From positions 23,342-87,341 of IMG/VR virus record IMGVR_UViG_2529293038_000017: 64,000 bases of DNA; one strand, 5' to 3'. Below, one piece after another: positions 3,367 through 64,000 of the stretch. Origin of the DNA: a virus (lineage: Duplodnaviria; Heunggongvirae; Uroviricota; Caudoviricetes). The translations under genes were made by a program, and so were the position numbers. Position 1 is the stretch's first letter; every line of letters starts with the position of its first letter. The notes beneath the pieces were generated by a model that worked only from the letters and a program-made list of their open reading frames with translations, searched no databases and was not told where the DNA came from.

Positions 3367-3493
3367 TTTTTACCTATACAACAGTAAGTTGAACAACATC
3401 TGAGAACGGTATGCACTTTGTGATTTCCACACACACTGGTTTTGTTAATTAAAACCTGTAGCTTGCAATAAATAACGATAGTGGGCAGAAAAT

Positions 3494-3670
3494 ATGCTAA
3501 TAGGCTATGTACGCATATAGACAAATGAACAAAACACAGCTATGCAGTGAAAAGCACTTGAAAGCGCAGGATGTGAGCTAATTTTTGCGAATAAGGCGAG
3601 CAGCAAAAAGGCTGGGCACCCTGGGTTAAAAAAGGTTCTGCGTATGCTTTCCAGAGGTGATACCCTAGTC
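3494..3670 (+). pseudogene. remnant of a second serine DNA invertase (Cin/Gin/Hin family) N-terminus with in-frame stops
   Basis: Reads MLIGYVRI*TNEQNTAMQ*KALESAGCELIFANKASSKKAGHPGLKKVLRMLSRGDTLV, aligning to the Cin N-terminus in this window (MQIGYIRVSTNDQNT...GDTLVVWKLDRLGRS); the catalytic Ser codon is TAG; homology ends at 3670. Confidence 0.65.
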
Positions 3671-3801
3671 TCGGGCTAGGGACAACATTTCGAGGACAGT
3701 TTTCATTAGCGGTCAGCAGGCGCTAGATACATCGAATTGATGTGCCGCGCGATAAATGTACCTATTCTATCAAGATAAATTACACCGACGCGGCATTAGA
3801 A

Positions 3802-4374
3802 TTACAGCTCAGATTGAGTTTGGCGCTTCTCTACAGGATGATAACGATAAATCGTCGATACACCGATATCGTAAATAATTGCCAACTGTTTCCTGCTGTA
3901 GCCATTTTCGATCAACCTCGCTATTTGCTCATGTTGTTCTTTTGTCAACTTCGGGCGACGTCCGCCAATGCGTCCCTGTTCGCGTGCAGCTGCCAGTCCG
4001 GCCAGTGTTCTCTCAACAATTAATTCACGTTCCATTTCTGCTAAAGCCCCCATGACGTGAAAAAAGAAACGCCCCATGGGTGTTGATGTGTCAATACTGT
4101 CTGTCAGACTACGGAAATTAACACCTTTTTCCCGCAACTCCTCTATAAGCGTGATAAGGTGTTTCATACTTCTGCCAAGCCTATCCAGCTTCCAGACAAC
4201 CAGCGTATCTCCTTCTGATAACGTTCTGAGCAGCTTTTTCAAGCCTGGTCTGGCTGACTTTGTTCCGCTTATTTTATCTTCAAAAATCAGTTCACATCCT
4301 GCGCAGTTCAGTGCATTTCTTTGTAAATCTGTGTTTTGGTCATTTGTTGACACACGAATGTAGCCAATTTGCAT
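3802..4374 (-). CDS. cin: Cin-type serine DNA invertase
   Basis: IGYIRVSTNDQ catalytic motif, LDRLGRS, C-terminal HTH; start set to ATG 4374 (AAGAGG 9 nt upstream) rather than track TTG at 4383; adjacent to invertible fibre segment. Confidence 0.9.
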   Translation of the reverse strand: MQIGYIRVSTNDQNTDLQRNALNCAGCELIFEDKISGTKSARPGLKKLLRTLSEGDTLVVWKLDRLGRSMKHLITLIEELREKGVNFRSLTDSIDTSTPMGRFFFHVMGALAEMERELIVERTLAGLAAAREQGRIGGRRPKLTKEQHEQIARLIENGYSRKQLAIIYDIGVSTIYRYHPVEKRQTQSEL

Positions 4375-4427
4375 GAAAAACAACCTCTTTGTTTAGTTAA
4401 AAATACATCGTTGGTATAGGTAGGGAT

Positions 4428-4453
4428 TAAGACTAAAACGTTGGTTTGGGAGA
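4428..4453. other. cix-like crossover site (left boundary of invertible segment)
   Basis: TAAGACTAAAACGTTGGTTTGGGAGAA; right half is reverse complement of left half of the site at 6010..6035; hix/gix-like AAACC-NN-GGTTT core. Confidence 0.5.
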
Positions 4454-4943
4454 AGGCTCTGCATTACCTGTTGGTGTCCCTGTTCCGTGGCCTTCAGCCA
4501 CTCCGCCAACAGGCTGGCTGAAATGCAACGGTGCGGCTTTTTCTGCTGAAGAATACCCGGAACTGGCAAAGGCTTACCCGACAAATAAATTGCCTGATTT
4601 ACGTGGTGAGTTCATTCGTGGCTGGGATGACGGGCGCGGGATTGATCCAGGTCGCTCTATTTTAAGCGAGCAAGGATATGCAACGGAGGATCATGCTCAC
4701 GGATTACCGTCAAAATCAACCGTAGCAACTGACAGCTCAATTAATTTCTACTTTGACGAGGCATGGGCTACTAGTGGTAATACGGGAGTTATCAGATGGG
4801 GGAACACAAGCGATGCAGGATTGCCAGCCCCTAATTATGGAACTTTTAAAACATATAAACAGTCCGTAGCTAATTTAGGTACTGCTGGCTTAGAAACCCG
4901 CCCTCGTAATATTGCATTTAATTATATTGTGAGGGCGGATTAA
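4446..4943 (+). CDS. silent alternative tail-fibre C-terminal cassette (Sv'-like); expressed only after inversion fuses it to the S constant part
   Basis: N-terminal ~65 aa (GEGSALPVGVPVPWPSATPPTGWLKCNGAAFS...DLRGEFIRGWDDGRG) and C-terminal ETRPRNIAFNYIVRA are shared with the S C-terminus on the opposite strand; middle differs. Confidence 0.6.
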   Translation: MGEGSALPVGVPVPWPSATPPTGWLKCNGAAFSAEEYPELAKAYPTNKLPDLRGEFIRGWDDGRGIDPGRSILSEQGYATEDHAHGLPSKSTVATDSSINFYFDEAWATSGNTGVIRWGNTSDAGLPAPNYGTFKTYKQSVANLGTAGLETRPRNIAFNYIVRAD

Positions 4944-4948
4944 TTATA

Positions 4949-5560
4949 TCAACTGGCTGTAGAAAGTTGTTTTTCAGGCCAGTTGAGATCTGGTGCCGTG
5001 GTTAAATCCATCGCGTTCAGCTCGTCTATATAATCTAGCACGGAGTTAAGCTGCGTGGTTTCTGCCTGCGTCAACTTCCGTCCAGCCCGTAATTTCAACT
5101 GAATCAGACTAATGGAATCCATCGCAGTATCAATCAATGACTGACGTTTTGTTTCTGCTGCCTCTACAGCTGCACTATGTTGAGCCTCAGTATCAACCAC
5201 CCATTTCTCTCCATCCCATTTGTCGTATGGTGTTAGCGGGGCGATAGTGGTTGTATTTTCCGGATAGTCACCCAACACCGTGATTTCTTCGGGATTCCCT
5301 GTGTCAATGCTATAGACAGTTTCGCCACGATGATCTGGCACATACTCCCATGAACTTAAATCCTCTGAACGGAGAATCGCATAACCTGCTTTATGTGAGC
5401 CTGGAGCATCCAAACAAGAATGTGCCGGAATACCAACGCCAACAGCAAGATATTCAGTTGATGCAGAAATATATTCCCGATTACCACCATCATAGTTATA
5501 AACGATAATGTTTCCTGCCTGTATGGCTATAAGTTCGCTATTTAATATCGCATTATCCAT
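4949..5560 (-). CDS. tail fibre assembly chaperone (U/Tfa-like)
   Basis: 203 aa; start overlaps S stop (TAATG); Tfa-type C-terminus (VLDYIDELNAMD); lies inside the invertible segment. Confidence 0.75.
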   Translation of the reverse strand: MDNAILNSELIAIQAGNIIVYNYDGGNREYISASTEYLAVGVGIPAHSCLDAPGSHKAGYAILRSEDLSSWEYVPDHRGETVYSIDTGNPEEITVLGDYPENTTTIAPLTPYDKWDGEKWVVDTEAQHSAAVEAAETKRQSLIDTAMDSISLIQLKLRAGRKLTQAETTQLNSVLDYIDELNAMDLTTAPDLNWPEKQLSTAS

Positions 5561-7239
5561 TATGCTGCTCTCACAATATAATTGAAGGCAATGTTACGTG
5601 GGCGGGTTTCATTCCCCCCAGATAACTCCGTTCTGTATTGACTGGTAAATTTACCATTAATCGCTCCTTCTTGGACGGCGTTATCTGTCGACAACAGGCT
5701 ATCCCCCCCTCTGTCATTTGGCACCAATACCGTGTTATCCCACGCGTCCCATGACCGAATATTATGATAATGACTTCCTGTTAACCACCCCTGTATGCTT
5801 AAGATGACCCTTCCCGCATCCACACCTCGCCCATCATCCCAACCACGGATAAACTCACCGCGTAAATCAGGTAATTTTAACGTTGGGTAAACCTTTGCCA
5901 GATTTGGGTACTTTTCAGAAGAAAATGCTGCTCCGTTACATTTCAGCCACCCCGTTGGTGGTGTGGCTGAGGGCCATGGAACAGGTACACCAACGGGCAG
6001 CGCCGAGCCTTCCCCTAAACCAAGGTAATTAAGAACGCTCTGAATACTGGGCTTACTAAGAATTGCACGTCCAACACTTGTCAGTGCAGTTAACGCGGCA
6101 CGATCAACCCCTGTGAAATAAGGGAGTTTATCTGCTGCGGTAGCTAGTGCCGCTAGAGCAGTGAGCGTAGCGTCTGCCGCTTGCTTTCCATTAGCCAAAT
6201 CATATGCAGCCTTGACAGCTTTCGGTGTAGCGGCCAGCACTTCAGACGTGCTGTTAGTGGCACTACTGAGCTGAGTGATGCCTTTCGCTGTCAATGAAGC
6301 TGTTGGCACACCAGTAATCTGATTCCAGGGATGTGTATGACTGGATGGTGCCTTTCCGGCTGCTAGATCGTATGCAGCTTTAACCGCTTTTGGCGTTGCA
6401 GCTAATGTTTCAGAAGTGCTGTTGGTGTCGCTACTGAGCTGAACTATCCCTTTTTGTGTCGTGGTTGCATCCTGGGCTGTATACTTCCCGTTAGCCAGGT
6501 CATATGCAGCCTTGACAGCTTTCGGTGTGGCGGCCAGCACTTCAGACGTGCTGTTAGTGGCACTACTGAGCTGAACTAATCCCTTTTGCGTTGTGCTTGC
6601 ATCCTGCGCCGTATACTTGCTTTTCGCCAGATCGTAGGCTTTTTTAACTGCCAGCGAACTCGCAGCAACATCACTTCTGGTACTGGTTACAGAGTCTGAA
6701 ATATCAATGCCGATCGTGCGGTTGATACGCTCGGATGTATCAATCATCTCTTGAGTAATGGTAGATACGCCAGCAGGGATATTCACCGTACAAACCAGCA
6801 GTTCCCCATCACCTAACTGATATGAATCGGTATAGGTTCTGGCAACAAATTCAGCTGCATGAATATGTGACGCGGTATTCACCTGATAGGTATCTTCTCC
6901 AAGAAGGTATCTTCCCTTCAGCACAATTGCATATTTCTTGCCTGCGTTAAGTGCAAGAGAGATATCCTTACGATGCTGAATAGTTACCTGGTAGAATTCA
7001 CCAATATCCACTGACGCCGCGCCAGCGGTTTTATCTCCATCCACTGAGGTGATTAACAGGTTCATCCCACCGCCAGGCTTAGGCAAGAAACCAGCATAAA
7101 ATCCCGGGTCAACAATTCCCCTGAATTTTCGGTTTAGAGCGGCTGACAGATATGGTTCGTGGTATTGCACATCAGCCACCAGAGCCAACGACTCGGGTGA
7201 TGGGTAAGTAACCGATGTAACAACTGTAACGTCATTCAT
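5560..7239 (-). CDS. tail fibre protein S (constant part plus currently expressed variable part)
   Basis: Repeated fibre motifs (KAVKAAYDLA..KYTAQDA.TTQKG.VQLSS.TNSTSE, 3-4 copies), C-terminal NETRPRNIAFNYIVRA; start set to ATG 7239 (AAGGA upstream, just after R stop) rather than 7326. Confidence 0.8.
   Translation of the reverse strand: MNDVTVVTSVTYPSPESLALVADVQYHEPYLSAALNRKFRGIVDPGFYAGFLPKPGGGMNLLITSVDGDKTAGAASVDIGEFYQVTIQHRKDISLALNAGKKYAIVLKGRYLLGEDTYQVNTASHIHAAEFVARTYTDSYQLGDGELLVCTVNIPAGVSTITQEMIDTSERINRTIGIDISDSVTSTRSDVAASSLAVKKAYDLAKSKYTAQDASTTQKGLVQLSSATNSTSEVLAATPKAVKAAYDLANGKYTAQDATTTQKGIVQLSSDTNSTSETLAATPKAVKAAYDLAAGKAPSSHTHPWNQITGVPTASLTAKGITQLSSATNSTSEVLAATPKAVKAAYDLANGKQAADATLTALAALATAADKLPYFTGVDRAALTALTSVGRAILSKPSIQSVLNYLGLGEGSALPVGVPVPWPSATPPTGWLKCNGAAFSSEKYPNLAKVYPTLKLPDLRGEFIRGWDDGRGVDAGRVILSIQGWLTGSHYHNIRSWDAWDNTVLVPNDRGGDSLLSTDNAVQEGAINGKFTSQYRTELSGGNETRPRNIAFNYIVRAA
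6010..6035. other. cix-like crossover site (right boundary, inside S)
   Basis: TTCCCCTAAACCAAGGTAATTAAGAA; inverted relative to 4428..4453; ~200 bp of ~80% identical inverted sequence flank both sites inward. Confidence 0.5.
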
Positions 7240-16264: not shown

Positions 16265-16298
16265 TTAACCGATTCTACGAGTAGTCATTTGTGACAGG

Positions 16299-16775
16299 TT
16301 ATTTTGCGCGCTTCAGGCAGCCATCTTCAGGTGCCGCGTTGAAAAGCTCTGCGGCCTTACGTAGCGTAAATGTTGCGATTTTTTTTCCGTCTACGTATGC
16401 ATCGAATGTTTTAACTTCCATATCAGGGGTATCTGACCAAAAACCATACCAGTAACTATCACCCACAGAGGAACCGATAGAACTGATAGGATATTCATCA
16501 TCACCAACTTTCAGCGTTATTTGTTCTTTTTTAGCATCAAATGACTCACCGCCAGGTTCTGTTTTCATGAGAGTGAGTAGTCGTGTTCCTACTTGATTGG
16601 GATCCGTATTATTAAATCCAACATCGCACTCAAATGTAAGCGTATAATTATCTTTGCTGGAAACAGCATAAGAGCGAACGCCATGAGTCTCGCTGGTGGA
16701 CCATTTGCTTACATTTGCCATTGATGAAAACGGAGTAAGCAAAGCAAGAATTAGAAAATATCGTTTGATGCGCAT
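16299..16775 (-). CDS. secreted protein with signal peptide (158 aa)
   Basis: N-terminus MRIKRYFLILALLTPFSSMA. Confidence 0.55.
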   Translation of the reverse strand: MRIKRYFLILALLTPFSSMANVSKWSTSETHGVRSYAVSSKDNYTLTFECDVGFNNTDPNQVGTRLLTLMKTEPGGESFDAKKEQITLKVGDDEYPISSIGSSVGDSYWYGFWSDTPDMEVKTFDAYVDGKKIATFTLRKAAELFNAAPEDGCLKRAK

Positions 16776-16826
16776 TAATTTATCTCCTTTGGATATTAAT
16801 ATTTTAATTAGTTAACCACCATATAT

Positions 16827-17474
16827 TCACCATTCATAGGGTAAATTAAGCGCTTTTAAACCTTGCTGGAAAGTATTAAGAGAGCCGTTTTTTTGTTGTT
16901 CCATTTTTTCGCGTGCAGCTTTCTCATACTGCTCCATCCGTTGGTTATACTCTTGCAATTCCTCCGGGGAGAGGTTTCCCATTGGGGAGTTTGTACCCGG
17001 CCCCCTGGCCCGTTCTTCAAGCGTACCCTGAACGTTTTGATGGCGCATTCCCGGGGCGTTTCTGATTGAATCAATGCCATTTCTTCCAACGTCTTCTTTA
17101 TTAACGGCATTGCTCGCCACCAGTACGCCCCAGCTAGGGATAGCAAAATCAGGAGCGGTTTCGCATGCCTTTACCATATAATCGAAAGAGCTTCGATTGA
17201 TCTCGTTTGCGTCGGGATTTAATAGGCGAGAATATTGATATTTAGCATTTTCGTTGGTTGCGACTTTATACAGTTCTTGCTGCACCATCGCTTCAGAAAG
17301 TTTAAGGCGTTTCATATCTGATAGTAACTTCTTGCGCATGGATTCGTCTTGACTGACAGCAAAACCGTAAACGTGCCCAAGGTATTTCGTATAATCGGTA
17401 CAAATCTCCTTTACGCTTGATGCTGCATTAACAGTCCCAGCCATAAATAATAACGGTAGTAATAGTTTTCTCAT
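16827..17474 (-). CDS. Sim-like secreted superinfection-exclusion candidate; carries a Sit-derived motif
   Basis: Start set to ATG 17474 (AGGTGAGG upstream) giving signal peptide MRKLLLPLLFMAGTVNA; segment NAPGMRHQNVQGTLEERAR matches Sit (GMRREVVQGTLEERAR, NSPGMRKNN) at protein and DNA level. Confidence 0.55.
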   Translation of the reverse strand: MRKLLLPLLFMAGTVNAASSVKEICTDYTKYLGHVYGFAVSQDESMRKKLLSDMKRLKLSEAMVQQELYKVATNENAKYQYSRLLNPDANEINRSSFDYMVKACETAPDFAIPSWGVLVASNAVNKEDVGRNGIDSIRNAPGMRHQNVQGTLEERARGPGTNSPMGNLSPEELQEYNQRMEQYEKAAREKMEQQKNGSLNTFQQGLKALNLPYEW

Positions 17475-20149: not shown

Positions 20150-20728
20150 ATGCTGGCTAAAGTCACTTTCCTGAGCTGTATAACGATGAGCGATTTTACT
20201 TTTTCTGGCTATGAATTGGCCTGCTTTGTAACACACTCCGGTCTATCCCGTAGCGCCGGGCATATCCTGTCGCAATGTGCAAATCTCGCGGCAACAACCA
20301 GTGAATACTTCATTCACAAGCCTCACCGCCTGATCGCGGCAGAAACTGGTTATAGCCAATCAACCGTCGTTCGTGCATTCCGTGAAGCTGTAAACAAAGG
20401 AATTCTGTCTGTAGAGATTGTTATCGGCGATCACCGTGAACGTCGCGCTAACCTGTACCGGTTTACACCATCCTTTTTGGCCTTCGCACAACAAGCCAAA
20501 AATGCGCTGATTGAAAGCAAATTAAAGATCTCTTCAGCGGCAACCAAGGTTAAAGCTGTTCTCGCTAAGACATTGGCTTTATTTAATTTTTTATCCACAC
20601 CCCCATGTCAAAATGATACCCCCTCCCCCTGTCAGGATGACGTGGCAATAAAGAATAAGAAGTCACAAGTTAAAAAACAAAAAGATCAGTTTCCGGCGGT
20701 GCCGGAACGACCAGACTCAAAAAATTGA
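20150..20728 (+). CDS. RepL-like lytic replication protein candidate (by position after kilA)
   Basis: 192-aa ORF; start uncertain; no motif confirmation. Confidence 0.35.
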   Translation: MLAKVTFLSCITMSDFTFSGYELACFVTHSGLSRSAGHILSQCANLAATTSEYFIHKPHRLIAAETGYSQSTVVRAFREAVNKGILSVEIVIGDHRERRANLYRFTPSFLAFAQQAKNALIESKLKISSAATKVKAVLAKTLALFNFLSTPPCQNDTPSPCQDDVAIKNKKSQVKKQKDQFPAVPERPDSKN

Positions 20729-20994
20729 CTTCATGGATCGCTGAGGCAAAAGCAAAGGCTGACAATCTGCGGTTATCCAAAAAACGCGCTCAAAAACATG
20801 AGTTCAAGCAGAAAGTAGAGGCGGCAGCGCGGAAATATGCTTACCTGAAGAACAAGCGTTCTCCTGATATTGGCGGGGTATCAAACTTCGATAATCTGCC
20901 GCATTGCATGACGGTAAACGAAGCTCTTAATGCGGTTTTAGCCAAAAATAAAGATAACGAACAATGGGGTATACCGGCAGGATTCAGAGGGTGA
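20725..20994 (+). CDS. hypothetical basic protein (89 aa)
   Basis: ORF with start overlapping upstream stop. Confidence 0.45.
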   Translation: MTSWIAEAKAKADNLRLSKKRAQKHEFKQKVEAAARKYAYLKNKRSPDIGGVSNFDNLPHCMTVNEALNAVLAKNKDNEQWGIPAGFRG

Positions 20995-21290
20995 TAGATT
21001 GCTCTAATCTGGAGTCACCTGGCGTTTTCAGTTTGAGGTCGGAGATGCAATCTGATTTTTTACAGTTAGCAATCGCTTTTGCAGGATATGTTTGTATTGG
21101 CTTCTGTGTATACATGATCAGCCGAAAAATGCTTGTCGATATCGACCGCAAAGAACAAGCAGAGAAGATCTTAGTATGGATTTTCTTTGGCGCGGTCTGG
21201 CCATTAGGGATCATGTTTGCTGCAACATTTCTTCTGATGTGGATATTCACCCTTCCAGGTGATTTCTATAGAAAAAAAGCCAGACATTGA
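20964..21290 (+). CDS. small membrane protein (108 aa)
   Basis: Two hydrophobic helices (LAIAFAGYVCIGFCVYMI, ILVWIFFGAVWPLGIMFAATFLLMWIF). Confidence 0.45.
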   Translation: MGYTGRIQRVIDCSNLESPGVFSLRSEMQSDFLQLAIAFAGYVCIGFCVYMISRKMLVDIDRKEQAEKILVWIFFGAVWPLGIMFAATFLLMWIFTLPGDFYRKKARH

Positions 21291-21413
21291 TACAATCGTT
21301 GCGGGTGCTTGAGGCTATCTGCTTCAGGCATTACCCGAAAAGCAGATAGAAGAAAGCCCCAGATAACATTACGCGTCCTGCAAGACGCTTAACATTAATC
21401 TGAGGCCATATCT

Positions 21414-21620
21414 ATGCTTAGCATACGTAGATTAGCCTCTTACCGACCAAAAGGTCAAGGAGAAGCAGGCTATGAAGCAGCAAAAAGCGATGTTAATCGC
21501 TCTGATCGTCATCTGTTTAACCGTCATTGTGACGGCACTGGTAACGAGGAAAGACCTCTGCGAGGTACGAATCCGAACCAGCCAGACGGAGGTCACTGTC
21601 TTCACAGCCTACGAATCTGA
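21414..21620 (+). CDS. mok: Mok-like overlapping reading frame of hok locus
   Basis: 68-codon frame starting 58 nt upstream of hok and overlapping it out of frame, as in hok/mok/sok loci. Confidence 0.5.
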   Translation: MLSIRRLASYRPKGQGEAGYEAAKSDVNRSDRHLFNRHCDGTGNEERPLRGTNPNQPDGGHCLHSLRI

Positions 21621-21627
21621 AAGGTAA
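21472..21627 (+). CDS. hok: Hok/Gef-family type I toxin (51 aa)
   Basis: MKQQKAMLIALIVICLTVIVTALVTRKDLCEVRIRTSQTEVTVFTAYESER matches the Hok pattern (C..LT...LTRK.LCE.R.R...EV..F.AYES); RBS AAGGAGAAG; below track cutoff. Confidence 0.8.
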   Translation: MKQQKAMLIALIVICLTVIVTALVTRKDLCEVRIRTSQTEVTVFTAYESER

Positions 21628-21702
21628 GAGACCTGGCGGGGAGAGATCTCCGCCACTCTTCGTGTGTCAGGTATCCTCAATGCACCCTTTCCTCTCCAAA
21701 TA

Positions 21703-27199: not shown

Positions 27200-27285
27200 A
27201 GGTGAAATCGTGGCGATTTCACCTTGAAATTTTAGAGTGATTTACTTTAAAAACAGTAGGTTAATAGTGAAATTTGAATGGCGAA
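27200..27285. promoter_or_regulatory. parS partition site
   Basis: Heptamer boxes ATTTCAC/GTGAAAT and hexamer TCGCCA/TGGCGA flanking an AT-rich centre (GTGAAATCGTGGCGATTTCAC ... AGTGAAATTTGAATGGCGA), just downstream of parB. Confidence 0.8.
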
Positions 27286-27288
27286 AGT

Positions 27289-28290
27289 TTAAGGCTTCGG
27301 CTTTTTATCGAGGCTCTTTCTAAGGATATGCCCAATCATCCTGTCGAGTTCTTCCTGTAGCTCTTTTGAAAGTCGATTAAACTCATAAGAAAATGCACGG
27401 CCTTTCACGCGCTTCCTTGCAAAGCGATCCTTGTCCTCAAATTTCCATAATTCAGTAACTACGGACTTATCTTTAGAACCTTTATCCGTGAGTAGTGAGG
27501 CTTCCTTTGTTATCAAGCGCAGGATTTTATTTTTAACTTCATCTTCGGCCATTTCTTCAATGGATAAGATGTCGTTTATTTCCGGGGATATGTTTTGAAT
27601 AAGCTGATCAAACTCTAAATTCTTGTTCCCCATTTCGTCGCCAACAGCACAAAGCGTTTTGTAGTCCGAAAAGGTTAATTCCGACTGCACAGGGAAAAGG
27701 GCGACTAATTCTTCCGGAGCACTCGCTGCCTGGAGAGCACGCGTGACTTTCGCCTGAGACAGCCCTTCCTTGGCTGCAATATCCTTCTGACTCATCCCAT
27801 CATTTTTCATTCGCATCAAACGCAGACCTATTTCTCGAATGCTGTGCTGCAATGCTGTCTGAACGTCTTTCGCTAAATTTTGCGCTTCCTGAACGCTGAT
27901 CTCCTGGTCCGTGACTAAAACCCGCAACCCTACGTTCTCTAAGATGGCAGAAGCTCGACGCCGGGAACCATCCAAAATTTCAATTTTCCCTGTAGCCCGT
28001 CTAACACCTATTGCAGGGTAAAATTGCTGATGCTTAATAGTGCTTCGGATACTTTTTAATGATTTTGGCGTAAGAGATGCCTGGTCACGCCCGTTGTTAT
28101 GCTGATCAACAAAGGTATCGCTTTCTACCTGGTTCGGAGGTATTACCTCTTCAATAAATGTGGCCTGGCGACCAGTTGATAACTTGAATACCTGCTCGAC
28201 TCGATCGCCAGAGGCTGAAGAACTATCAAATCCGCTTAATATTGAAGGATTAAGGGTTCGCCCAATTGTTGGTCTGTTTTTCTTTGACAT
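27289..28290 (-). CDS. parB: partition protein ParB
   Basis: 333 aa; recognised as P1-type ParB by sequence recall and position between parA and parS. Confidence 0.9.
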   Translation of the reverse strand: MSKKNRPTIGRTLNPSILSGFDSSSASGDRVEQVFKLSTGRQATFIEEVIPPNQVESDTFVDQHNNGRDQASLTPKSLKSIRSTIKHQQFYPAIGVRRATGKIEILDGSRRRASAILENVGLRVLVTDQEISVQEAQNLAKDVQTALQHSIREIGLRLMRMKNDGMSQKDIAAKEGLSQAKVTRALQAASAPEELVALFPVQSELTFSDYKTLCAVGDEMGNKNLEFDQLIQNISPEINDILSIEEMAEDEVKNKILRLITKEASLLTDKGSKDKSVVTELWKFEDKDRFARKRVKGRAFSYEFNRLSKELQEELDRMIGHILRKSLDKKPKP

Positions 28291-28306
28291 GGGGGTTTCT
28301 TACTCC

Positions 28307-29503
28307 TCAGTTAGATCTGATAAATTCAATACGGTCAAAAACTGCTTTAGCAAAATCTTCCGCGGCAATTCGCGCGTTCTTCAATGCATCAGCACTACCA
28401 ACATACGTTGCCGGGTTAGCTGAAATAACAGTGTCAAAAGACTCGCCGCAACGTTCAAAACCGTCAAGGCGAGGGAGGACGACATCGAGCATATCCCCAC
28501 CGAACACTTCTTTAGCCAAGCTATGGCAATACTTATGATCTGCCTTGTTACTCAACTTGGACATAAAACCAATGTTAGTCGCAAGCTGGCACTCGCAGCC
28601 TTCATCCGAAATGAGTTTCACCAACTCAGGAAGGCGGGCAACGTATTTAAGCGATGAGTGGAAATCGACAGTTGCTGGCGGCAGAGGTGTAAACAGTATA
28701 TTGGCCGAGGCCAAAGCATTTTTCAGGAAGGCGTCAAGGTGAGGACCACTATCAACGAGGATAAAGTCATAATCGCTCTTCAGCTTATCAATCACATTTT
28801 CTTTCAGGACAGCATGGATGTTCTGACCCGGTAGATGCTCATTGCACAGCTCTCTCCAATCGGATGCAATAAAGGCATCGTCAATCGACGCAGGCATAAC
28901 GTCAACCCCAGGTACAACAGAAGGAACAATAAACTCCTCTAACAGCTCTTCACGGCTTACATTCTGCAACATAGCCTGTGCAGATGTTGCGTTTACGATA
29001 CCAATAGAGTGTTTATGGCTTAAAAACATCGTTGCTGAAGATTGCGGATCAAGGTCAATAACCAGAATCCTTAAATCTTCCATCAGAAGATGAGGGTGGG
29101 CACGCATTGCATGCGCCAGAGAAACCGTCGATACAGTTTTTGACACACCGCCTTTAAGATTGGAGATGAAAATCACATACGCTTCGCTGTAGCGATCCCG
29201 GTATTTTGGCACTCCGCGATGTTCATATATGTCAATGATGTTCTGAATTGACATCGCATATTTCATTGAAGAGCCAGCAGGGCGTTTATCGAAAACATAG
29301 CCCTTTTCTTCCATTTCACTTACGGCATAGTCAACGTTCGCTCGAGTCAGTAGAGGCAATTTTGCCAGTGCCGCTTTCGCATAGACCTGGTAAAACTCGT
29401 TCGCGTGTAGCTCATCCTTTTGCAACTGTACTTGTTCAGTCAGAACATTGAGCATTCTGTTTGCTCTTTGAGCAACCTTGTGAAGCTGGCTGGAATCACT
29501 CAT
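28307..29503 (-). CDS. parA: partition ATPase ParA (type Ia, with N-terminal HTH extension)
   Basis: 398 aa; deviant Walker A NLKGGVSKT; recognised as P1-type ParA. Confidence 0.92.
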   Translation of the reverse strand: MSDSSQLHKVAQRANRMLNVLTEQVQLQKDELHANEFYQVYAKAALAKLPLLTRANVDYAVSEMEEKGYVFDKRPAGSSMKYAMSIQNIIDIYEHRGVPKYRDRYSEAYVIFISNLKGGVSKTVSTVSLAHAMRAHPHLLMEDLRILVIDLDPQSSATMFLSHKHSIGIVNATSAQAMLQNVSREELLEEFIVPSVVPGVDVMPASIDDAFIASDWRELCNEHLPGQNIHAVLKENVIDKLKSDYDFILVDSGPHLDAFLKNALASANILFTPLPPATVDFHSSLKYVARLPELVKLISDEGCECQLATNIGFMSKLSNKADHKYCHSLAKEVFGGDMLDVVLPRLDGFERCGESFDTVISANPATYVGSADALKNARIAAEDFAKAVFDRIEFIRSN

Positions 29504-29776
29504 CGAAAGTCATCCTTTATGCTGTATTTTTGAATTTAATTAAAAATGCTGCATAAAATAATAATGTATGCGTAGATGCTTGTACATAGCATTCTCTGCA
29601 TGTTTACTCCTTTGCCAAGTGTGTCACAACATGCTTTGGCATCCTCCACGTATAAAGGACGCGGATTTCTTCTATGTTCAGGTTGTAGCCTGAATCATTT
29701 TGGTGATTTCCTGCTTCAACGGGCAGCCAGGCTTCACTCTCTATCAACTGGTGAGAACGGCTTGCCCGGCAGCTTC

Positions 29777-55509: not shown

Positions 55510-56235
55510 ATGAAAGGCGAAGTGAAAGAGCGCGGCATGATTTTCAACGATGAGATGGTCCGGTCCATCCTCGAAGGAAGGAAGACGCAGACGCGGCGGA
55601 TAATGAAAAATCAGCCTGCGGAAGTTGGTCCAGAAGCACCAGTGATGGTTAGAAAAATTGGTGCAGGTTTTCAGTGGTACGCGGCTGATGGTGAAAGCAG
55701 TGTTTTCAATTGCCCCTTTGGTATCGTCGGTGATCGAATTTGGGTTCGTGAAACATGGGCGATATTAGGCAATGAGGATGGTTGCAGTGTGGACTGGAAC
55801 GACAACCTTTGTCGTGGCGATGAGCAGAATGCAGCAAGGATTTATCGGGCCAGTTGTGAGCAAAAGCCTGGTGATTACGGTTTATGGTCGATACCCGATG
55901 ATGCCGACTGGAAACCTCACACTGTGAATGAAAAGTTTGATGGTGGGTGGCGTCCATCAATTCACATGCCGCGATGGGCATCACGCATCCTGTTGGAAAT
56001 TACCAACGTGCGCGTTGAGCGGTTGAACGATATCAGCGAATGCGATGCAAGGGATGAGGGCGTTCCGCCTGCTGGAAGTTTGCTTCCTGATCACCCGGGA
56101 ACATTCCTTACTCCCAAGGGGGATTTCGCAATGGCCAAGGTTGCGTTCCAGCGCCTGTGGGAATCCATCTACGGCGAAGAAAGCTGGAGTGCTAATCCCT
56201 GGGTTTGGGTAATCGAGTTTGAGCGTATTCAGTAG
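55510..56235 (+). CDS. protein with RKTQTRR / GDRIWVRETW motifs (ASCH-like?)
   Basis: 241 aa; family call is low-confidence recollection. Confidence 0.5.
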   Translation: MKGEVKERGMIFNDEMVRSILEGRKTQTRRIMKNQPAEVGPEAPVMVRKIGAGFQWYAADGESSVFNCPFGIVGDRIWVRETWAILGNEDGCSVDWNDNLCRGDEQNAARIYRASCEQKPGDYGLWSIPDDADWKPHTVNEKFDGGWRPSIHMPRWASRILLEITNVRVERLNDISECDARDEGVPPAGSLLPDHPGTFLTPKGDFAMAKVAFQRLWESIYGEESWSANPWVWVIEFERIQ

Positions 56236-56244
56236 GGCGAGCGT

Positions 56245-56466
56245 ATGCAATCAGTTATTTGTGAGGAAGTCGGCCTGAATAAAGCATCCCCAGCAGAGTT
56301 AAGAGCAAGTCTCGAAATGGCGCATAGCCTTGCTCAAATTGGTGTCAGGTTTGTACCAATTCCAGTTGAAACAGATGAAGAGTTTCACAGGTTAGCGGCA
56401 TCGGCAGCACAAAAGCTGGAAATCATGGCAGCGAAAGTAGAGAAAGCTGAAGGAGCGACAAAATGA
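56245..56466 (+). CDS. hypothetical protein (73 aa)
   Basis: ORF in operon. Confidence 0.4.
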   Translation: MQSVICEEVGLNKASPAELRASLEMAHSLAQIGVRFVPIPVETDEEFHRLAASAAQKLEIMAAKVEKAEGATK

Positions 56467-56678
56467 GCAAGCCAACCGACGAAGAAATAGTTCGGGTGTT
56501 GGAAGAACACGGGCGCTGTATGACTTACGTCGTGACCAACTGGCTTAGGGATAAATATCGCACACTCAAAACGGCATACGTTTTGCGTCGTCTAAAAAAA
56601 CTGGAGTTCGACGGGAAAGTAAAGCGCGTTAACAGTTCTTATATAAGACAAATTTGCTGGGAGGCATCCAGTGAGTAA
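56463..56678 (+). CDS. small basic protein, possible winged-helix regulator (71 aa)
   Basis: ORF overlapping stop/start. Confidence 0.4.
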   Translation: MSKPTDEEIVRVLEEHGRCMTYVVTNWLRDKYRTLKTAYVLRRLKKLEFDGKVKRVNSSYIRQICWEASSE

Positions 56679-57315
56679 CCGTTTTTACATGATGTGCTTG
56701 CGTGAAACTGTGGGTAATAACGCCTCATTCCATTGCCATAACGGCAATGGTTACAGTTCTGATATCGATCGCGCTCATGTTTACACGCTGGAAGAAGCCC
56801 AAAAAGCCTGGAATTGTGGGCGAGATATCGATCAGCCTGTTTGTGCCGATAGTGTGGATGCAATGGCTGTGTGGCACGTTGATTGCCAGTACATCCCTAC
56901 AGAAAGCCTGATTGAGTCAGATTGCACTGCGTATGTGGCCTACAAAAAAGGTAGCTGGAACGGCAACGATGTTTACTGGCTTCAACACGGTGGATTGCCA
57001 ACAGATGACTTCAGTAAAGCGACCATCTTTAGCGTCGCCAACAAAAACGAACCAGGAATAGTTTGGTTGCCATTTTCCATTGCTGATGCAGCAAAGCGCC
57101 GGACGTTCAATATCAATAACTTTAACCGCAGAACAATGGTTCAGGGCGCAGGTTTGGTCATGCCTGACTGGTTGAAAAAGCAGAACAGAAGAAAGAAGTC
57201 GCGAAGCGGGAAGGTGCGTTGGAATTGTCCGCATTGCGGAAAAATCACCTGGCAGTACAACCCATATGATTTTGAAGGCTGTAGTGATTACAACTGTGAA
57301 GGATGGCGAGAATGA
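56671..57315 (+). CDS. Cys-rich protein (214 aa)
   Basis: CPHCGK...C..YNCEGW and other Cys pairs. Confidence 0.45.
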   Translation: MSNRFYMMCLRETVGNNASFHCHNGNGYSSDIDRAHVYTLEEAQKAWNCGRDIDQPVCADSVDAMAVWHVDCQYIPTESLIESDCTAYVAYKKGSWNGNDVYWLQHGGLPTDDFSKATIFSVANKNEPGIVWLPFSIADAAKRRTFNINNFNRRTMVQGAGLVMPDWLKKQNRRKKSRSGKVRWNCPHCGKITWQYNPYDFEGCSDYNCEGWRE

Positions 57316-57995
57316 CAATTGACTATCAGGTACTGCGCGAGGCGGCGGAACAGGCAACGCAAGATGAATGGGTAGCATATATTTTGCCGGGCCAAAACGG
57401 CACTTATCCTGCGCATACGTCTGAGGGTAGGCATTGCGGATACTTTATTGACTGGCCTGGCATTGATGGACAGAGAAACGCTGGTGCCAATGCCCGTTAT
57501 ATCGCGGCTATCCCACCCAAAGTTGTGCTGGCTCTACTGGATGAAATTAAGCGCCTGGAGGACACAAATATTGATGCTATGTGTCGAATTGCAGAGCTTG
57601 AGACTAATCTCGCGGCGCTGGTGGCGGAGAATGTGGGGCTAAAGGCGATATGTGATGACCGTCGCAGGTTCATCATGAATGGGGTGCAGATGGGTTATAT
57701 CAAGGTGCCAGCAGCGGAAACAGATCCAGACCTTGAGACAATTCGCATTGCTATATCACCACAAAAGCCCATTCCAGCCACTGATGCTTTCCTGTCTGAA
57801 GTGCGGGCGCAGGGGGTGGATGCTGCTATAGAAGCTGCAAAAAATCTGGTGGTCCAAGAATATGAGTATAAGGATTTCAAAGCGGCGCAGAGTGATTGCT
57901 GTATGCACCCTGGTTCAGACCTGGTAGGGAAGGTTGAAATGACTGAGTGGTTAGTTGACTTTGCTGCCCAGCTTCGCAAAGGAGGCAGCCAGTGA
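57303..57995 (+). CDS. Ead/Ea22-like protein, paralogue A
   Basis: N-terminus DYQVLREAAEQATQDEW shared with next ORF. Confidence 0.5.
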   Translation: MARMTIDYQVLREAAEQATQDEWVAYILPGQNGTYPAHTSEGRHCGYFIDWPGIDGQRNAGANARYIAAIPPKVVLALLDEIKRLEDTNIDAMCRIAELETNLAALVAENVGLKAICDDRRRFIMNGVQMGYIKVPAAETDPDLETIRIAISPQKPIPATDAFLSEVRAQGVDAAIEAAKNLVVQEYEYKDFKAAQSDCCMHPGSDLVGKVEMTEWLVDFAAQLRKGGSQ

Positions 57996-58408
57996 GCAAA
58001 ATTGACCATCAGGCACTGCGTGAGGCGGCAGAGCAGGCAATGCATGACGACTGGGGATTTGACGCGGACCTTTTCCATGAGCTGGTAACACCATCGATTG
58101 TGCTGGAACTGCTGGATGAACGGGAAAGAAACCTGCAATACATCAAAAGCCGCGATCAGGAGAACGAGGATATTGCGCTAACGGTAGGGAAGCTGCGCGT
58201 TGAGCTTGAAGCAGAAAAACAGCGGGCAAAAGTTCTATTTATGGAAAATGCTCGGCTTAAGTCAGGCATAGCCGGTCTGATACACCTCGGTATTCGATAT
58301 GCAGATGTTGAGGTCATGAAAATTGCTGGAGATGCCCAGCTTTCTACCCCATGCACTGACAGCATCATAAACAGCATTGCAACAGGCATTCGCATCAAAG
58401 GAGAGTGA
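57992..58408 (+). CDS. Ead/Ea22-like protein, paralogue B
   Basis: N-terminus DHQALREAAEQAMHDDW. Confidence 0.5.
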   Translation: MSKIDHQALREAAEQAMHDDWGFDADLFHELVTPSIVLELLDERERNLQYIKSRDQENEDIALTVGKLRVELEAEKQRAKVLFMENARLKSGIAGLIHLGIRYADVEVMKIAGDAQLSTPCTDSIINSIATGIRIKGE

Positions 58409-58409
58409 T

Positions 58410-58925
58410 ATGGCGTTAACACACCACGAACTCTGTCAGATTGCGTACAAGTTCCTTAAGCGCAACGGGTTCAAGGTTTGCTTTCATGACCGCTTTGTTG
58501 CTGTAACCAGTACCGGAGAACAGCCAGATGCTATGGGATTCAGAAATTCAGCATCATGCCTGATAGAGGCGAAGTGTTCTCGTGCTGACTTGTTGGCAGA
58601 TAGAAAAAAGCGTTTCCGTAAAAATCCCTCACTTGGCATGGGCGACTGGCGATTCTTTATTAGTGAGCCGGAAATTATTTCAGTTGAGGATTTACCTCCC
58701 GGCTGGGGATTACTTCACGTTGTTAACGGAAGAGTACGGAAAGTACATGGGTGGCCCAAGGGTAATTGCTGTTGGGGTAATCCTGACGATAAGCCATTTA
58801 CTGGAAATAAGCAGGTTGAATGCGATTACATGTTATCTGCATTAAGGCGCATGGAGTTGAGAGGGCACCTTAATGAAATATATGACGGTGTAATTGTTAA
58901 TAAGAAAGAAGGAAACGCAGCATGA
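58410..58925 (+). CDS. PD-(D/E)xK nuclease-fold protein candidate
   Basis: Start at ATG 58410 (AAAGGAGAG upstream); GEQPDAMGF...CLIEAKCS. Confidence 0.4.
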   Translation: MALTHHELCQIAYKFLKRNGFKVCFHDRFVAVTSTGEQPDAMGFRNSASCLIEAKCSRADLLADRKKRFRKNPSLGMGDWRFFISEPEIISVEDLPPGWGLLHVVNGRVRKVHGWPKGNCCWGNPDDKPFTGNKQVECDYMLSALRRMELRGHLNEIYDGVIVNKKEGNAA

Positions 58926-59308
58926 TCACTATTACCAAAGAACGCCTGCTGACAATCCAGCAGTGGCGCGAAACATACGGACCTGGTAGCAACGTTGTAC
59001 TGCCAGCAGAAGAAGCGGAAGAACTGGCACGAATTGCTCTGGCATCGCTGGAAGCAAAACCAATAGGTGCATTCCACATTGCAGAACAGCAAGTTGACGG
59101 CACAAGTGACTACATCAAGGATGGGGAGTGGCCTATTGATAATGGAATTATTGAGGTCTACGCCGCTCCCCCCGTTCCAGTAGTACCGGAAGAAAAACCA
59201 ATGCCTAATCCTCTTAGCATGTACGCGGTTGATGCTGTTGCCGCTATTGCAGAGGTAAGAGGCTGGAATGCCTGCCGCGCGGCTATGCTTCATGGGAAAG
59301 GAAAGTGA
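58922..59308 (+). CDS. hypothetical protein, paralogous to N-region of 59741..61012
   Basis: Shares ALASLEA(K/E)P and VYAA(P/A)P..VVP with the DUF551-like protein. Confidence 0.45.
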   Translation: MITITKERLLTIQQWRETYGPGSNVVLPAEEAEELARIALASLEAKPIGAFHIAEQQVDGTSDYIKDGEWPIDNGIIEVYAAPPVPVVPEEKPMPNPLSMYAVDAVAAIAEVRGWNACRAAMLHGKGK

Positions 59309-59531
59309 TATGGCTAACTCATTACTTGAAACCTGCAACAACTGGCAGATTCAGAGGGCGGAGATTTTATCTCACAATCCAGATATGGCAATGACAATTG
59401 ATAATCTGGACACGCTAATTGAACGGACCGTGCGTTCTGCAATTGATATAGCACATCGAGTGGATTGGGATTTCAGAGAAGCGGAGCGGCTTGCTAAAGA
59501 GCAGGAGAAAGCAGCGGGTAAAGGAGACTGA
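59268..59531 (+). CDS. hypothetical protein (likely start at 59313, MANSLLE)
   Basis: ORF in operon. Confidence 0.4.
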   Translation: MPAARLCFMGKESDMANSLLETCNNWQIQRAEILSHNPDMAMTIDNLDTLIERTVRSAIDIAHRVDWDFREAERLAKEQEKAAGKGD

Positions 59532-59730
59532 TATGGATAAAAACACCACTGCTTACTGGAATCTGTCACTTGATACCGAATGCCCAAAATGCGGTCACAA
59601 TTTCGATCTGCTTTGTGATCCAGATTTCTGGGAATTTTCTGGAGCAAAACAGGCATGTGAAGAAATAAAAGGTTACGAAACATGCTGTCCAGAATGTAAC
59701 CATGAATTTAAAACAGATTTTGTGTATTGA
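59491..59730 (+). CDS. zinc-ribbon protein (likely start at 59533, MDKNTT)
   Basis: CPKCGH...CCPECNH. Confidence 0.45.
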   Translation: MLKSRRKQRVKETDMDKNTTAYWNLSLDTECPKCGHNFDLLCDPDFWEFSGAKQACEEIKGYETCCPECNHEFKTDFVY

Positions 59731-59740
59731 GGCATAACGA

Positions 59741-61012
59741 ATGACCACTTTTACTAAAGAACAATTAATAGAGATGATTAAGCGCAATATAACGGTTATG
59801 GATCGTTATCCTGATTTAGTAACTGCACAAATGGATCTGGAAGTATACAAAATTGCGCTGGCATCACTGGAAGCAGAACCAGTTGCTTATATTTTCAAAC
59901 ATCCGGCCGGGAAATTATTCTGGGCTTTAACGGATGAAAGCAATAAAGAGCAAGCGGACGTTATTCCTGTTTATGCTGCCGCGCCTGCGTCGGTTGTGCC
60001 GGATAATGCATCAGAGCCTCTTGCTTATGCTTACAAAGAGCTTACGCCTGAGATTATGCGCAACCATTTAGCTGTATTCGAGCGATATGGAATAGCCCCA
60101 AACGATAGCTCTACCACAATTCAGGCACTGCGAATCGCGCTGGATGGTATAGAGCGGAGCGACGCCATGCTTCAGTCCGGAAACTTTCGGGAAAACAAGA
60201 ATTCGTCAACCAATAATTTTCGGGAAATCGCGGAAACGTCAACCAACTATCCGGTAATTCCTAGTGAGGTGTTGTCCGCAATCCTGAAGGTTGCCAAGAT
60301 TCGTGCCGATTTCGATGATTTTGACGGTGACAGGCGAGGTATCGATGATTGTCTGGATGAGGCTGAGCAAGAGCTTATCGTTACCATTAACAAATATGCC
60401 AGTCAGTTGGCAGCAGAACCGATAGCGACTAATGACGTTCGAGAGCAAACAGCCGTTCCGCCAGTTCCGGTAATGCAGGCTGATGTCGCGCAGGCAATTG
60501 AAAAACTCAAACGGAAATTAGTGGAATGCAATCGCTATAACTACTGTGCAGATGCAGTTAAAGGCGTAGAGGATGCCTGCCGTGCTGTTAGCTATAGCCA
60601 AGCCGACAATCAGCCAGCATCTGGCAACCAGGCTGCCGAATCCAATCGCGATAATGAGTGGACTGGCAATCCTGATATTGATAACGCCATCATCATGCTC
60701 GACCGCATAGATACGCTGGAAAATTGCGATGATGACCGTATTGAGGCTGTTAAGGCTGTTTTGCGTAGACTGGCTGGCAACTATCCGGTAATTCCGGATG
60801 GTTGGATAAGCTGTAGTGAGCGAATGCCTGAGAACATTCCCGGAAGTTGTAAAGAGTATCTGGTGTTTGATGGGCTTAATAATAAAGTTCATCACGATTA
60901 CTGGGTTGTCCCTGATGGAGACAGTGCGCCAGTTGCGTCGTTCTGGAATCATTACGGGGCACATGTAACTCACTGGATGCCTCTACCAGAACCGCCGCAG
61001 GAGGCGAAATGA
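59741..61012 (+). CDS. protein with C-terminal DUF551-like domain (423 aa)
   Basis: C-terminus W..CSERMPE...HVTHWMPLPEPP. Confidence 0.5.
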   Translation: MTTFTKEQLIEMIKRNITVMDRYPDLVTAQMDLEVYKIALASLEAEPVAYIFKHPAGKLFWALTDESNKEQADVIPVYAAAPASVVPDNASEPLAYAYKELTPEIMRNHLAVFERYGIAPNDSSTTIQALRIALDGIERSDAMLQSGNFRENKNSSTNNFREIAETSTNYPVIPSEVLSAILKVAKIRADFDDFDGDRRGIDDCLDEAEQELIVTINKYASQLAAEPIATNDVREQTAVPPVPVMQADVAQAIEKLKRKLVECNRYNYCADAVKGVEDACRAVSYSQADNQPASGNQAAESNRDNEWTGNPDIDNAIIMLDRIDTLENCDDDRIEAVKAVLRRLAGNYPVIPDGWISCSERMPENIPGSCKEYLVFDGLNNKVHHDYWVVPDGDSAPVASFWNHYGAHVTHWMPLPEPPQEAK

Positions 61013-61269
61013 TGGATGTAAAAGAGAAGGTTTTGCAGGTGATGCGTTCCCGGGCTGCCCTGCAAGATAAAGCTCTCGTCGGGAAATATCCATTCAGGAT
61101 GGCAACCTGGAATCTGCGGTTGGCAATGGAGAAGGAATTTCCTGATGAAGAATGGCGTTCGGCAGATTTGCGCAAAATTCTTATGGAGATGGCTAAAGAT
61201 GGAACAGTATCCAAAGATACCCATGCCAGCCGGATTGGTCAGGCGGTATGGAGACTGGAGGTGAGGTAA
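61009..61269 (+). CDS. hypothetical protein (86 aa)
   Basis: ORF in operon. Confidence 0.45.
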   Translation: MMDVKEKVLQVMRSRAALQDKALVGKYPFRMATWNLRLAMEKEFPDEEWRSADLRKILMEMAKDGTVSKDTHASRIGQAVWRLEVR

Positions 61270-61345
61270 TAAGCTGGCCTGAAGCATTTGCGATTGTAGG
61301 CGTAGCTATGGCGATTGCCGCTATTTTTATCTTCTGGGGGTAACG

Positions 61346-61579
61346 ATGGGAAAATTAACTTTTGTAGTCGAATTTGAGGATGGCAAAGAGCCACCTGTTA
61401 GCGCCAATCTTGATGTTGCTGGTGGCAGGCTGGTTTCGGTTCTATTTGGTGATTACCGCGACGACTTCTTTCAGCCTGAAGAAGTTGATGTAGTGCGAGA
61501 AGCATTAAACGAGCTAAGTGTTGATAACGATGATGCTCATGCGGAAATCATCAAAAAAATGGAACTGCTAACTCACTAA
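61346..61579 (+). CDS. acidic hypothetical protein (77 aa)
   Basis: ORF in operon. Confidence 0.45.
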   Translation: MGKLTFVVEFEDGKEPPVSANLDVAGGRLVSVLFGDYRDDFFQPEEVDVVREALNELSVDNDDAHAEIIKKMELLTH

Positions 61580-61661
61580 ATTATCAATTATGGTGCTATC
61601 ACCTACGACACCGAGAGAAAATTTATAATGTCAAAAGTAAATGTTTTGATTTTTTCAGCAA

Positions 61662-62051: not shown

Positions 62052-62057
62052 ATTTAT

Positions 62058-63667: not shown

Positions 63668-63699
63668 GTGCCTGATCCACTAACTCCTGGAGGTTTCTT

Positions 63700-63978: not shown

Positions 63979-64000
63979 CCCCAGCGTGGCGCGCCTACAA

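Follow-up and report, generated by a model that had tools for sequence, protein, structure and literature searches.

The locus described here raises two questions: whether a short hok-like reading frame carried by a P1-like phage-plasmid belongs to a complete toxin-antitoxin module, and what such a module would do for its carrier. Of the type I toxin-antitoxin families, hok/sok is the textbook case and the best studied, and inactivity is known for many hok loci on chromosomes. All positions refer to the window, the whole 64,000-nucleotide stretch of DNA that was analysed. We regard it as secure that the locus, on a P1-like (IncY) phage-plasmid, is a complete hok/mok/sok module and belongs to the hokW/hokC sequence type. 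That it works as hok/sok of plasmid R1 does, with stabilisation of the plasmid prophage as its net effect, we consider about 85% probable; transcription, processing, toxicity and the stabilising effect of this copy are predicted from homology and structure prediction.

The preliminary description of this DNA had recognised a 51-codon ORF of the Hok/Gef type preceded by a ribosome-binding site, and our analysis recovered the same coordinates and peptide, with AAGGAG as the binding site (Table 1). The peptide scores 73.1 bits against the Pfam HOK_GEF profile (PF01848; cut-off 22, E=1.3e-20), its residues 6-47 aligning on positions 1-42 of the 42 in the profile, and 107.8 bits against phrog_251 ('MokW-like host killing'). 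When aligned with R1 Hok, HokC, HokW and Rac Hok, residues M1, K2, C15, T17, T25, R26, L29, C30, E31, E40, V41, Y47 and E48 are invariant, and the ORF, which is intact in the window copy, displays the residues common to experimentally toxic members, namely two cysteines, the TR..LCE motif and the C-terminal YE.

The toxin gene had also been called invisible to the ORF track; this reflects merely the short length of the ORF, and PGAP annotates hokD in identical plasmids. Indeed, the locus is 100% identical to that of IncY plasmids such as NZ_CP069885, where the product is labelled 'type I toxin-antitoxin system toxin HokD', and is thus already known as a Hok toxin in RefSeq; hundreds of public plasmid records carry such an annotation. 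The peptide scores below the curated cut-offs of the NCBIfam Hok models (PRK09738 Hok subfamily, 46.5 bits versus 73; HokA, 36 versus 89), so the PGAP label does not stem from the NCBIfam HMM cut-offs. The E. coli chromosomal hokD (relF) peptide is very similar, with three substitutions near the C-terminus apart from S38/T42. However, the chromosomal HokD-type loci that were sampled (L020, L021 and L026) have no tac box upstream, whereas the window has the full mok/sok/tac/fbi set; the name 'hokD' therefore reflects peptide similarity only. In view of the sub-cut-off NCBIfam scores, we do not endorse specific orthology to HokD.

A 68-codon frame that overlaps hok had been proposed as an out-of-frame mok, and this assignment holds: the mok-to-hok offset of 58 nt equals that of the annotated mok and hok of phage Rac (MN652886), and the mok translation matches phrog_37205. 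The leader (21303..21477) matches Rfam RF01794 with 114.9 bits (gathering score 59, E=6.3e-27) over model positions 1-157 of 157, which adds to the Hok/Gef assignment. Despite its name ('sok'), RF01794 matches in the sense orientation of hok, as far as the hok AUG. What it describes is the hok mRNA leader, to part of which the real Sok is antisense. Other Rfam hits (CRISPR-DR46, ceN48, sbrA and a 21-bit minus-strand 'sok') all fell far short of their gathering scores and were set aside.

Every regulatory element defined for R1 hok/sok could be placed, that is, the hok promoter, tac, ucb, the mok Shine-Dalgarno (SD) sequence, dcb, the hok SD, the post-stop hairpin and fbi. Placement relied on alignment with R1/F-type loci, an Atlantibacter plasmid locus, K-12 hokC, 933W and Rac, together with motif location. 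The -10 element of the hok promoter aligns with TAGAAT, TATGAT and TATAAT of the 933W, R1-type and K-12 hokC loci, respectively, and the mok-hok mRNA would start at about 21303. The block that bears dcb is conserved across the hok family in the alignment, and tac, too, is conserved in the family. A GC-rich fold-back past hok had been placed at 21631..21652; the hairpin is real and lies about 3 nt further to the right. The homology to 933W ends precisely at the 3' end of fbi, and the hairpin that follows, acting on the plus strand, probably provides the 3' end of the mok-hok mRNA. The range originally given for the locus, 21380-21640, corresponds to its centre, while the full module begins with the hok promoter (21269) and reaches as far as fbi (21687) or the terminator hairpin (21724).

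Table 1. Features of the hok/mok/sok locus and its surroundings, in window coordinates.
Feature	Position	Strand	Basis and details
Segment without P1 counterpart, 693 bp	21009..21701		replaces P1 rlfA-rlfB-pmgF (1826 bp); blastn breakpoints
hok/mok mRNA promoter	21269..21296	+	promoter scan; -35 TAGAAA (21269-74), 16-nt spacer, extended -10 TG-TACAAT (21291-96)
Full-length mok-hok mRNA, minimum extent	21303..21687	+	start of RF01794 match; homology to 933W hokW, 21291..21687; fold
tac (translational activator element), GGGTGCTTGAGG	21303..21314	+	mRNA 5' end; pairs with fbi in the minimum free energy (MFE) fold
Predicted Sok antisense RNA, ~71 nt	21352..21422 (about 21422->21352)	-	coordinates transferred from annotated sokW of 933W
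ucb / anti-SD, AAGCCCC	21354..21360	+	pairs with mok SD (full-length form) and with tac (shortened form)
mok Shine-Dalgarno, GAGG	21402..21405	+	8 nt 5' of mok ATG (21414); from sequence
mok reading frame, 68 codons	21414..21620	+	out of frame with hok; stops 7 nt before hok stop
Putative Sok promoter	21429..21458	-	-35 TTGACC (21458->21453), 18-nt spacer, -10 TAATCT (21434->21429)
dcb, CCTC, in conserved block TAGCCTCTTACC (21433-44)	21436..21439	+	partner of mok SD in open form
hok Shine-Dalgarno, AAGGAG	21457..21462	+	9 nt 5' of ATG; overlaps Sok -35 on opposite strand
hok toxin gene, 51 aa, MKQQKAMLIALIVICLTVIVTALVTRKDLCEVRIRTSQTEVTVFTAYESER	21472..21627	+	Pfam and PHROG profiles
Post-stop GC-rich hairpin, core GGCGGGGAGAGATCTCCGCC (21635-54)	21634..21655	+	RNA fold
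fbi (fold-back inhibitory element), CCTCAATGCACCC	21675..21687	+	complementary to tac, one-base bulge
Hairpin AAAGCTCCcgaaGGAGCTTT, common to P1	21705..21724		minus-strand terminator scan; bplB operon terminator

In the model established for R1, a tac/fbi stem closes the full-length mRNA while ucb masks the mok SD; after trimming of the 3' end, tac can pair with ucb, and dcb with the mok SD, and the opened mRNA becomes accessible to ribosomes and to Sok, the resulting duplex being cleaved by RNase III (PMC9841398). Structure prediction for the complete transcript, which the preliminary description had suggested as a check, gave a fold of -154.6 kcal/mol (z=-7.5 versus shuffled sequences) in whose MFE form tac is paired with fbi and 21356-62, which overlaps ucb, with 21400-06, so that the mok SD region is sequestered. 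When the tac/ucb stem, which corresponds to consensus helix 1 of RF01794, is enforced in the shortened RNA, the fold lies 0.6-2.6 kcal/mol above the MFE. With the RNA ending at 21640, 21655 or 21660, although not at 21650, this fold includes pairing between the mok SD (21402-05) and 21436-39. In the unconstrained MFE of the 3'-shortened RNA, tac pairs instead with the sequence just downstream in another 5' hairpin, with no tac/ucb stem. This hairpin resembles the metastable hairpin reported in PMC9841398, and we do not count it against the switch model because the tac/ucb fold is nearly isoenergetic. The predicted closed and open pairings match the published R1 pathway (PMC9841398).

The tac-fbi pairing was also examined at the level of the family, in 79 hok loci drawn from one genome per species, to which phage and plasmid loci were added; in 64 loci a tac box could be recognised and the downstream sequence was long enough. 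Among these 64, the best complement of tac lies nearly always 45-58 nt past the stop codon, and the mean duplex energy is -19.7 kcal/mol, compared to -10.5 (sd 2.6) for shuffled downstream sequence and -9.1 for the next 55 nt. The duplex in the window (-20.6 kcal/mol, starting 47 nt after the hok stop) is typical for the family. The same loci show covariation, with two-sided compensatory changes at tac positions 4 and 7 (U-A/C-G at both) and at positions 11 and 12 (G-C/A-U). One could suppose that the hok ORF and the frame overlapping it arose by chance in a spacer between genes, a view in favour of which only their short length would speak; the Pfam and Rfam E values given above and hundreds of conserved homologs with covarying RNA refute this idea, to which we attach practically no probability.

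The preliminary description did not place Sok with confidence. By homology to the annotated sokW of 933W and sokC of K-12, we place the predicted antisense RNA at about 21422->21352 on the minus strand. The RefSeq sokC feature starts 49 nt before the hokC ATG and shares 9 nt with mokC; its 5' end thus corresponds here to 21422, 9 nt into mok, in agreement with the transfer from sokW. In the predicted Sok, a long hairpin lies between a short 5' tail and a U-rich tail; the RNA is complementary to ucb, the mok SD and the mok AUG, and folds with -36.4 kcal/mol (z=-6.2). The interval 21430..21480, where the 5' end of Sok was to be sought, therefore holds the putative promoter, and the transcript lies to its left, largely outside 21380..21640.

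The Sok promoter was not flagged by a generic promoter scan, which did find the hok promoter, because its -10 element, TAATCT, is weak by consensus. A reading in which there is no Sok promoter was rejected on the basis of alignment to R1 and of a motif test at family level. TTGACC-N18-TAATCT sits where R1 has TTGCGC-N17-TATCCT, and an antisense TTGNNN-N16-19-TANNNT motif occurs at this position in 45 of 55 distinct family leaders, compared to 4.2% of shuffles and none on the sense strand.

Among known systems, the closest are those of the Stx2 phage 933W (AF125520; hokW/mokW/sokW) and of Rac, with 86.5% and 90.8% nucleotide identity, respectively, over 21291..21687. The 933W record is annotated with mok, hok and sok, and that of Rac with mok and hok. 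Loci of this type, which are nearly identical in Rac-type and other lambdoid prophages, share with the window the promoter position, tac, ucb, Sok, hok SD, hairpin and fbi, and their Hok is 90% identical; the sequence after fbi and the terminator differ. A 1-nt deletion in 933W brings mokW into the frame of hokW; in the window, as in Rac and R1, mok and hok are in different frames. The carriers also differ, since 933W/Rac-type loci reside in integrated lambdoid prophages and the window locus in a P1-like plasmid prophage.

The R1 hok/sok (parB) and F flm loci, which are the experimentally defined prototype, have the same gene order with an overlapping, out-of-frame mok, and share with the window the Sok -35 element over the hok SD, the tac/fbi lock, the ucb/dcb switches and the post-stop hairpin. 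R1 Hok is, however, only 40% identical to the Hok of the window, the leader hairpins differ in length, and tac reads GGGTGC here versus GGCGC in R1, with a compensating fbi (GCACCC versus GCGCC). In K-12 hokC (gef)/mokC/sokC, Hok is 80% identical, tac is the same and the overlap between Sok and the mok start is 9 nt; unlike the window mok, mokC is in frame with hokC. IS186A lies 20 bp past the hokC stop codon and cuts off fbi (PMC3562002), whereas the corresponding site in the window is empty and intact.

The window derives from a P1-like phage-plasmid, with P1 gene order and 95-99% identity through most of its length. In blastn comparisons to NC_005856, P1 homology breaks at 21008 and resumes at 21702, and the 693-bp segment in between holds an 81-aa ORF (21045-21290, phrog_3772) and the hok/sok module. 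Relative to reference P1, this P1-like lineage thus shows a swapped cassette where the lytic replicon borders on the late operon. The left junction lies inside the P1 C1 operator Op55, just past repL, and the first 11 nt of the operator, ATTGCTCTAAT (20998-21008), are kept. The repL gene itself has lost 1 bp from an A7 run near 20671, so that RepL is cut short at 192 aa versus 281. The preliminary description knew of no hok locus in P1 itself, which is in line with our searches: six-frame tblastn and Hok-profile searches detected no Hok ORF in the complete P1 genome OP279344 or in reference positions 1-55800; the best match to Hok had E=0.09 versus 1e-31 for the window.

P1 has an addiction system of another kind, phd-doc (type II), whose presumed role, to kill or arrest any cell from which the plasmid prophage has been lost, would be shared by hok/sok. 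It combines a protein antitoxin with a toxin of the Fic family, has neither sequence nor mechanism in common with hok/sok, and lies elsewhere in P1. A search of the window did not find phd-doc; the slot expected for it holds a 73-aa ORF for a DUF1382 protein, and P1 homology stops at 56157, where a DUF1382/Ea22-like accessory region follows. A P1-type phd-doc may lie beyond the window end.

Beyond the window, the locus matches 662 plasmid and 88 phage records. The P1-like phage record MH422554 labels the hok ORF 'MokW'. Full-length matches, as sampled from many plasmids in several species, are 98.5-100% conserved. Literature searches retrieved no paper explicitly discussing hok/sok in P1-like phage-plasmids, and the mentions of hok found there concern other plasmids.

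Two allele variants were observed. In 162 PLSDB records, an IS186 of 1337 bp with a 10-bp duplication lies inside the post-stop hairpin and splits fbi from hok; it is 99.8% identical to K-12 IS186A, and its orientation and its position, to the nucleotide, are those of IS186A beside hokC. The site is empty in 226 PLSDB records and in the window copy; the split allele accounts for roughly four in ten of the hok-bearing relatives. The hokC insertion is thought to disrupt fbi (PMC3562002). In some P1-like plasmids (e.g. NZ_OY754380), only 21201..21437, which is the hok promoter, leader and Sok-coding region, is kept, and unrelated DNA follows.

The presence of IS186 between hok and fbi in 162 plasmids indicates that part of the lineage can do without the intact module, or possibly selects against it. 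Like several chromosomal hok loci of E. coli, the window module could be complete in structure but inert, a silent passenger that recombination carries along in a variable region of P1-like genomes. Its site is indeed prone to swaps, being occupied by rlfA-rlfB-pmgF in P1, by the leader-only remnant in NZ_OY754380 and by the IS186-split allele in the 162 records, and both the Sok and hok promoters depart from consensus. However, the ORF, mok start, tac, ucb, fbi and empty IS186 site are all intact, the conservation of the sampled full-length matches is high, and the tac-fbi duplex energy equals the family norm. We consider such inertness quite improbable because all elements that are damaged in inactive chromosomal copies are intact here.

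For the favoured reading, an active module of the R1 type, the following sequence of events is proposed. A weak constitutive promoter would produce a stable mok-hok mRNA of roughly 385-425 nt, in which pairing of tac at the 5' end with fbi at the 3' end, and masking of the mok ribosome site by ucb, would leave the message untranslated and unbound by Sok. Slow trimming of the 3' end would strip fbi, upon which tac would pair with ucb and expose the mok ribosome site and the Sok target. In plasmid-bearing cells, unstable Sok made from a stronger promoter would bind the open mRNA, and the duplex would be destroyed. In plasmid-free cells, Sok would decay first, mok and the coupled hok would be translated, and the 51-aa membrane peptide would kill the cell. 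The net outcome would be stabilisation of the plasmid prophage by post-segregational killing, which is the likely role of the module. The proposal made at the outset, in which hok/sok may join the par system as an accessory addiction module, is plausible.

The same RNA mechanism might instead serve mainly in defence or competition, with shut-off of host transcription as its trigger and abortive infection of phages, or exclusion of rival P1-like elements, as its outcome. R1 hok/sok reportedly gives abortive infection against T4. The closest relatives of the locus are found in integrated lambdoid and Stx prophages (933W, Rac and VT2-Sakai), which are not losable by missegregation; the PHROGs category of the family is 'moron, auxiliary metabolic gene and host takeover', and P1-type elements already possess par and, in P1, phd-doc for stability. 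The molecular anatomy is, however, identical to that expected for addiction, and the two roles are not mutually exclusive; moreover, the failure to find phd-doc in the window leaves room for hok/sok as the addiction function. We judge a mainly defensive role unlikely, while allowing it some weight because the nearest relatives sit in integrated prophages.

A broader interpretation, which we hold only tentatively and think rather doubtful when all of its corollaries on addiction, IS186 and C1 are taken jointly, is that the interval between Op55 and the bplB terminator is a recombination cassette site in P1-like phage-plasmids. The alternative cargoes observed in this interval are rlfA-rlfB-pmgF, hok/sok with the 81-aa ORF, the Sok/leader-only remnant and the IS186-split hok. 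If this interpretation were true, hok/sok may replace or back up phd-doc as addiction function, the site-specific insertion of IS186 in the post-stop hairpin would represent a recurrent natural rewiring or disarming of hok loci, and the retained half of the C1 operator could couple cassette expression to prophage repression.

The practical value of this analysis lies in annotation. Public records mark the toxin ORF only, sometimes as 'MokW' or 'hypothetical protein', and leave out mok, Sok and the RNA elements, all of which the present analysis locates at nucleotide resolution. The IS186 split and the cassette swap are relevant to the stability of phage-plasmids that spread resistance genes.

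The RF01794 match, which carries the Rfam name 'sok antitoxin', lies on the hok-sense strand (21303-21477, +) and has its 3' limit at the AUG of hok. RF01794 is a model of the hok mRNA leader, and taking the match as the gene for the antisense RNA Sok thus gives the wrong strand. Within this leader, the frame of mok relative to that of hok is set by a 1-nt indel at approximately 21455 (the T in AAAGGTCAAGG). Rac and R1 share with the window an out-of-frame arrangement of mok relative to hok, whereas mokW of 933W and mokC of K-12, as annotated, are in frame with hok and generate a Hok protein that is extended at its N-terminus.

We note that in some P1-like plasmids the locus is reduced to the hok promoter, the leader and the region that encodes Sok. 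In the example listed in the table, plasmid NZ_OY754380, the break falls between the -10 and -35 elements of the Sok promoter. Beyond the break lie 762 bp of unrelated sequence, which include a 198-aa ORF on the opposite strand; such a locus may represent either an orphan Sok or simply a remnant. A different arrangement was observed in plasmids AP022276 and NZ_CP111000, where R1-type hok genes are preceded by DNA that is unrelated to the family leader. The tac, ucb and mok elements are absent upstream of hok in these two plasmids, an fbi-like sequence (CTGAAGCGCC) is retained downstream, and the two look like rearranged hok loci.

The hairpin that directly follows the hok stop codon (window equivalent 21634-21655) carries a 1337-bp IS186 in 162 PLSDB records, in which hok and the 3' fold-back element fbi are split apart; the site is empty in the window and in 226 PLSDB records. 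The plasmid copy is 99.8% identical to IS186A of K-12 and is flanked by a target duplication of 10 bp (GGAGAGATCC). At hokC of K-12, the adjoining IS186A shares both the exact insertion nucleotide and the orientation of the plasmid element.

Near-identical enterobacterial hok loci were also present in genome_contigs under non-enterobacterial labels (loci L017, L027, L042, L088, L089 and L090), namely Veillonella, Acinetobacter, Xanthomonas, Ferruginibacter, Streptomyces and Oscillibacter. These are mainly short contigs or MAGs, and their hok genes probably reflect contamination with, or mis-binning of, E. coli, plasmid or vector DNA.

Coordinates of features in the window and in comparison loci
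Feature	Sequence	Position	Strand	Remark
repL	window	20150-20994		1-bp deletion within 20665-20680
81-aa ORF	window	21045-21290	+	phrog_3772, 181 bits
DUF1382 gene	window	56245-56466		in non-P1 stretch 56158-64000
Ea22-like gene	window	57303-57995		in non-P1 stretch 56158-64000
Leader-only locus	L006 (NZ_OY754380)	3411-3647		equivalent to window 21201-21437
IS186-filled hok site	L005 (NZ_CP148455)	5358-6695		compared with L011 (K-12) 1-432

P1 homology stops at 56157, just short of the place of phd-doc in P1, and no Phd or Doc homolog was found within the 64,000-nt window. The stretch beyond this point also holds a mosaic accessory region that is common to many P1-like plasmids. Further intervals without a megablast match of at least 400 bp to P1 (OP279344), at 3671-6492, 16293-17334, 27234-29773 and 38891-41945, are other variable regions of the P1-like element. 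In repL, an A7 run is reduced to A6 when compared to both P1 and NZ_CP069885, and this deletion truncates RepL to 192 aa (versus 281 aa), which reflects either a homopolymer sequencing error or a defective lytic replicon.

The 81-aa ORF, for which no match was found in Pfam or NCBIfam, accompanies the hok module within the swapped-in segment, and ends in a stop codon that overlaps with the hok promoter. On the left side, the exchange between P1 and non-P1 DNA has its breakpoint inside the C1 operator Op55 of P1 (ATTGCTCTAATTATAAC). Since the initial 11 nt of Op55 are kept in the window (ATTGCTCTAAT, 20998-21008), the 81-aa ORF and hok may still be closely preceded by a C1 operator in half or variant form.
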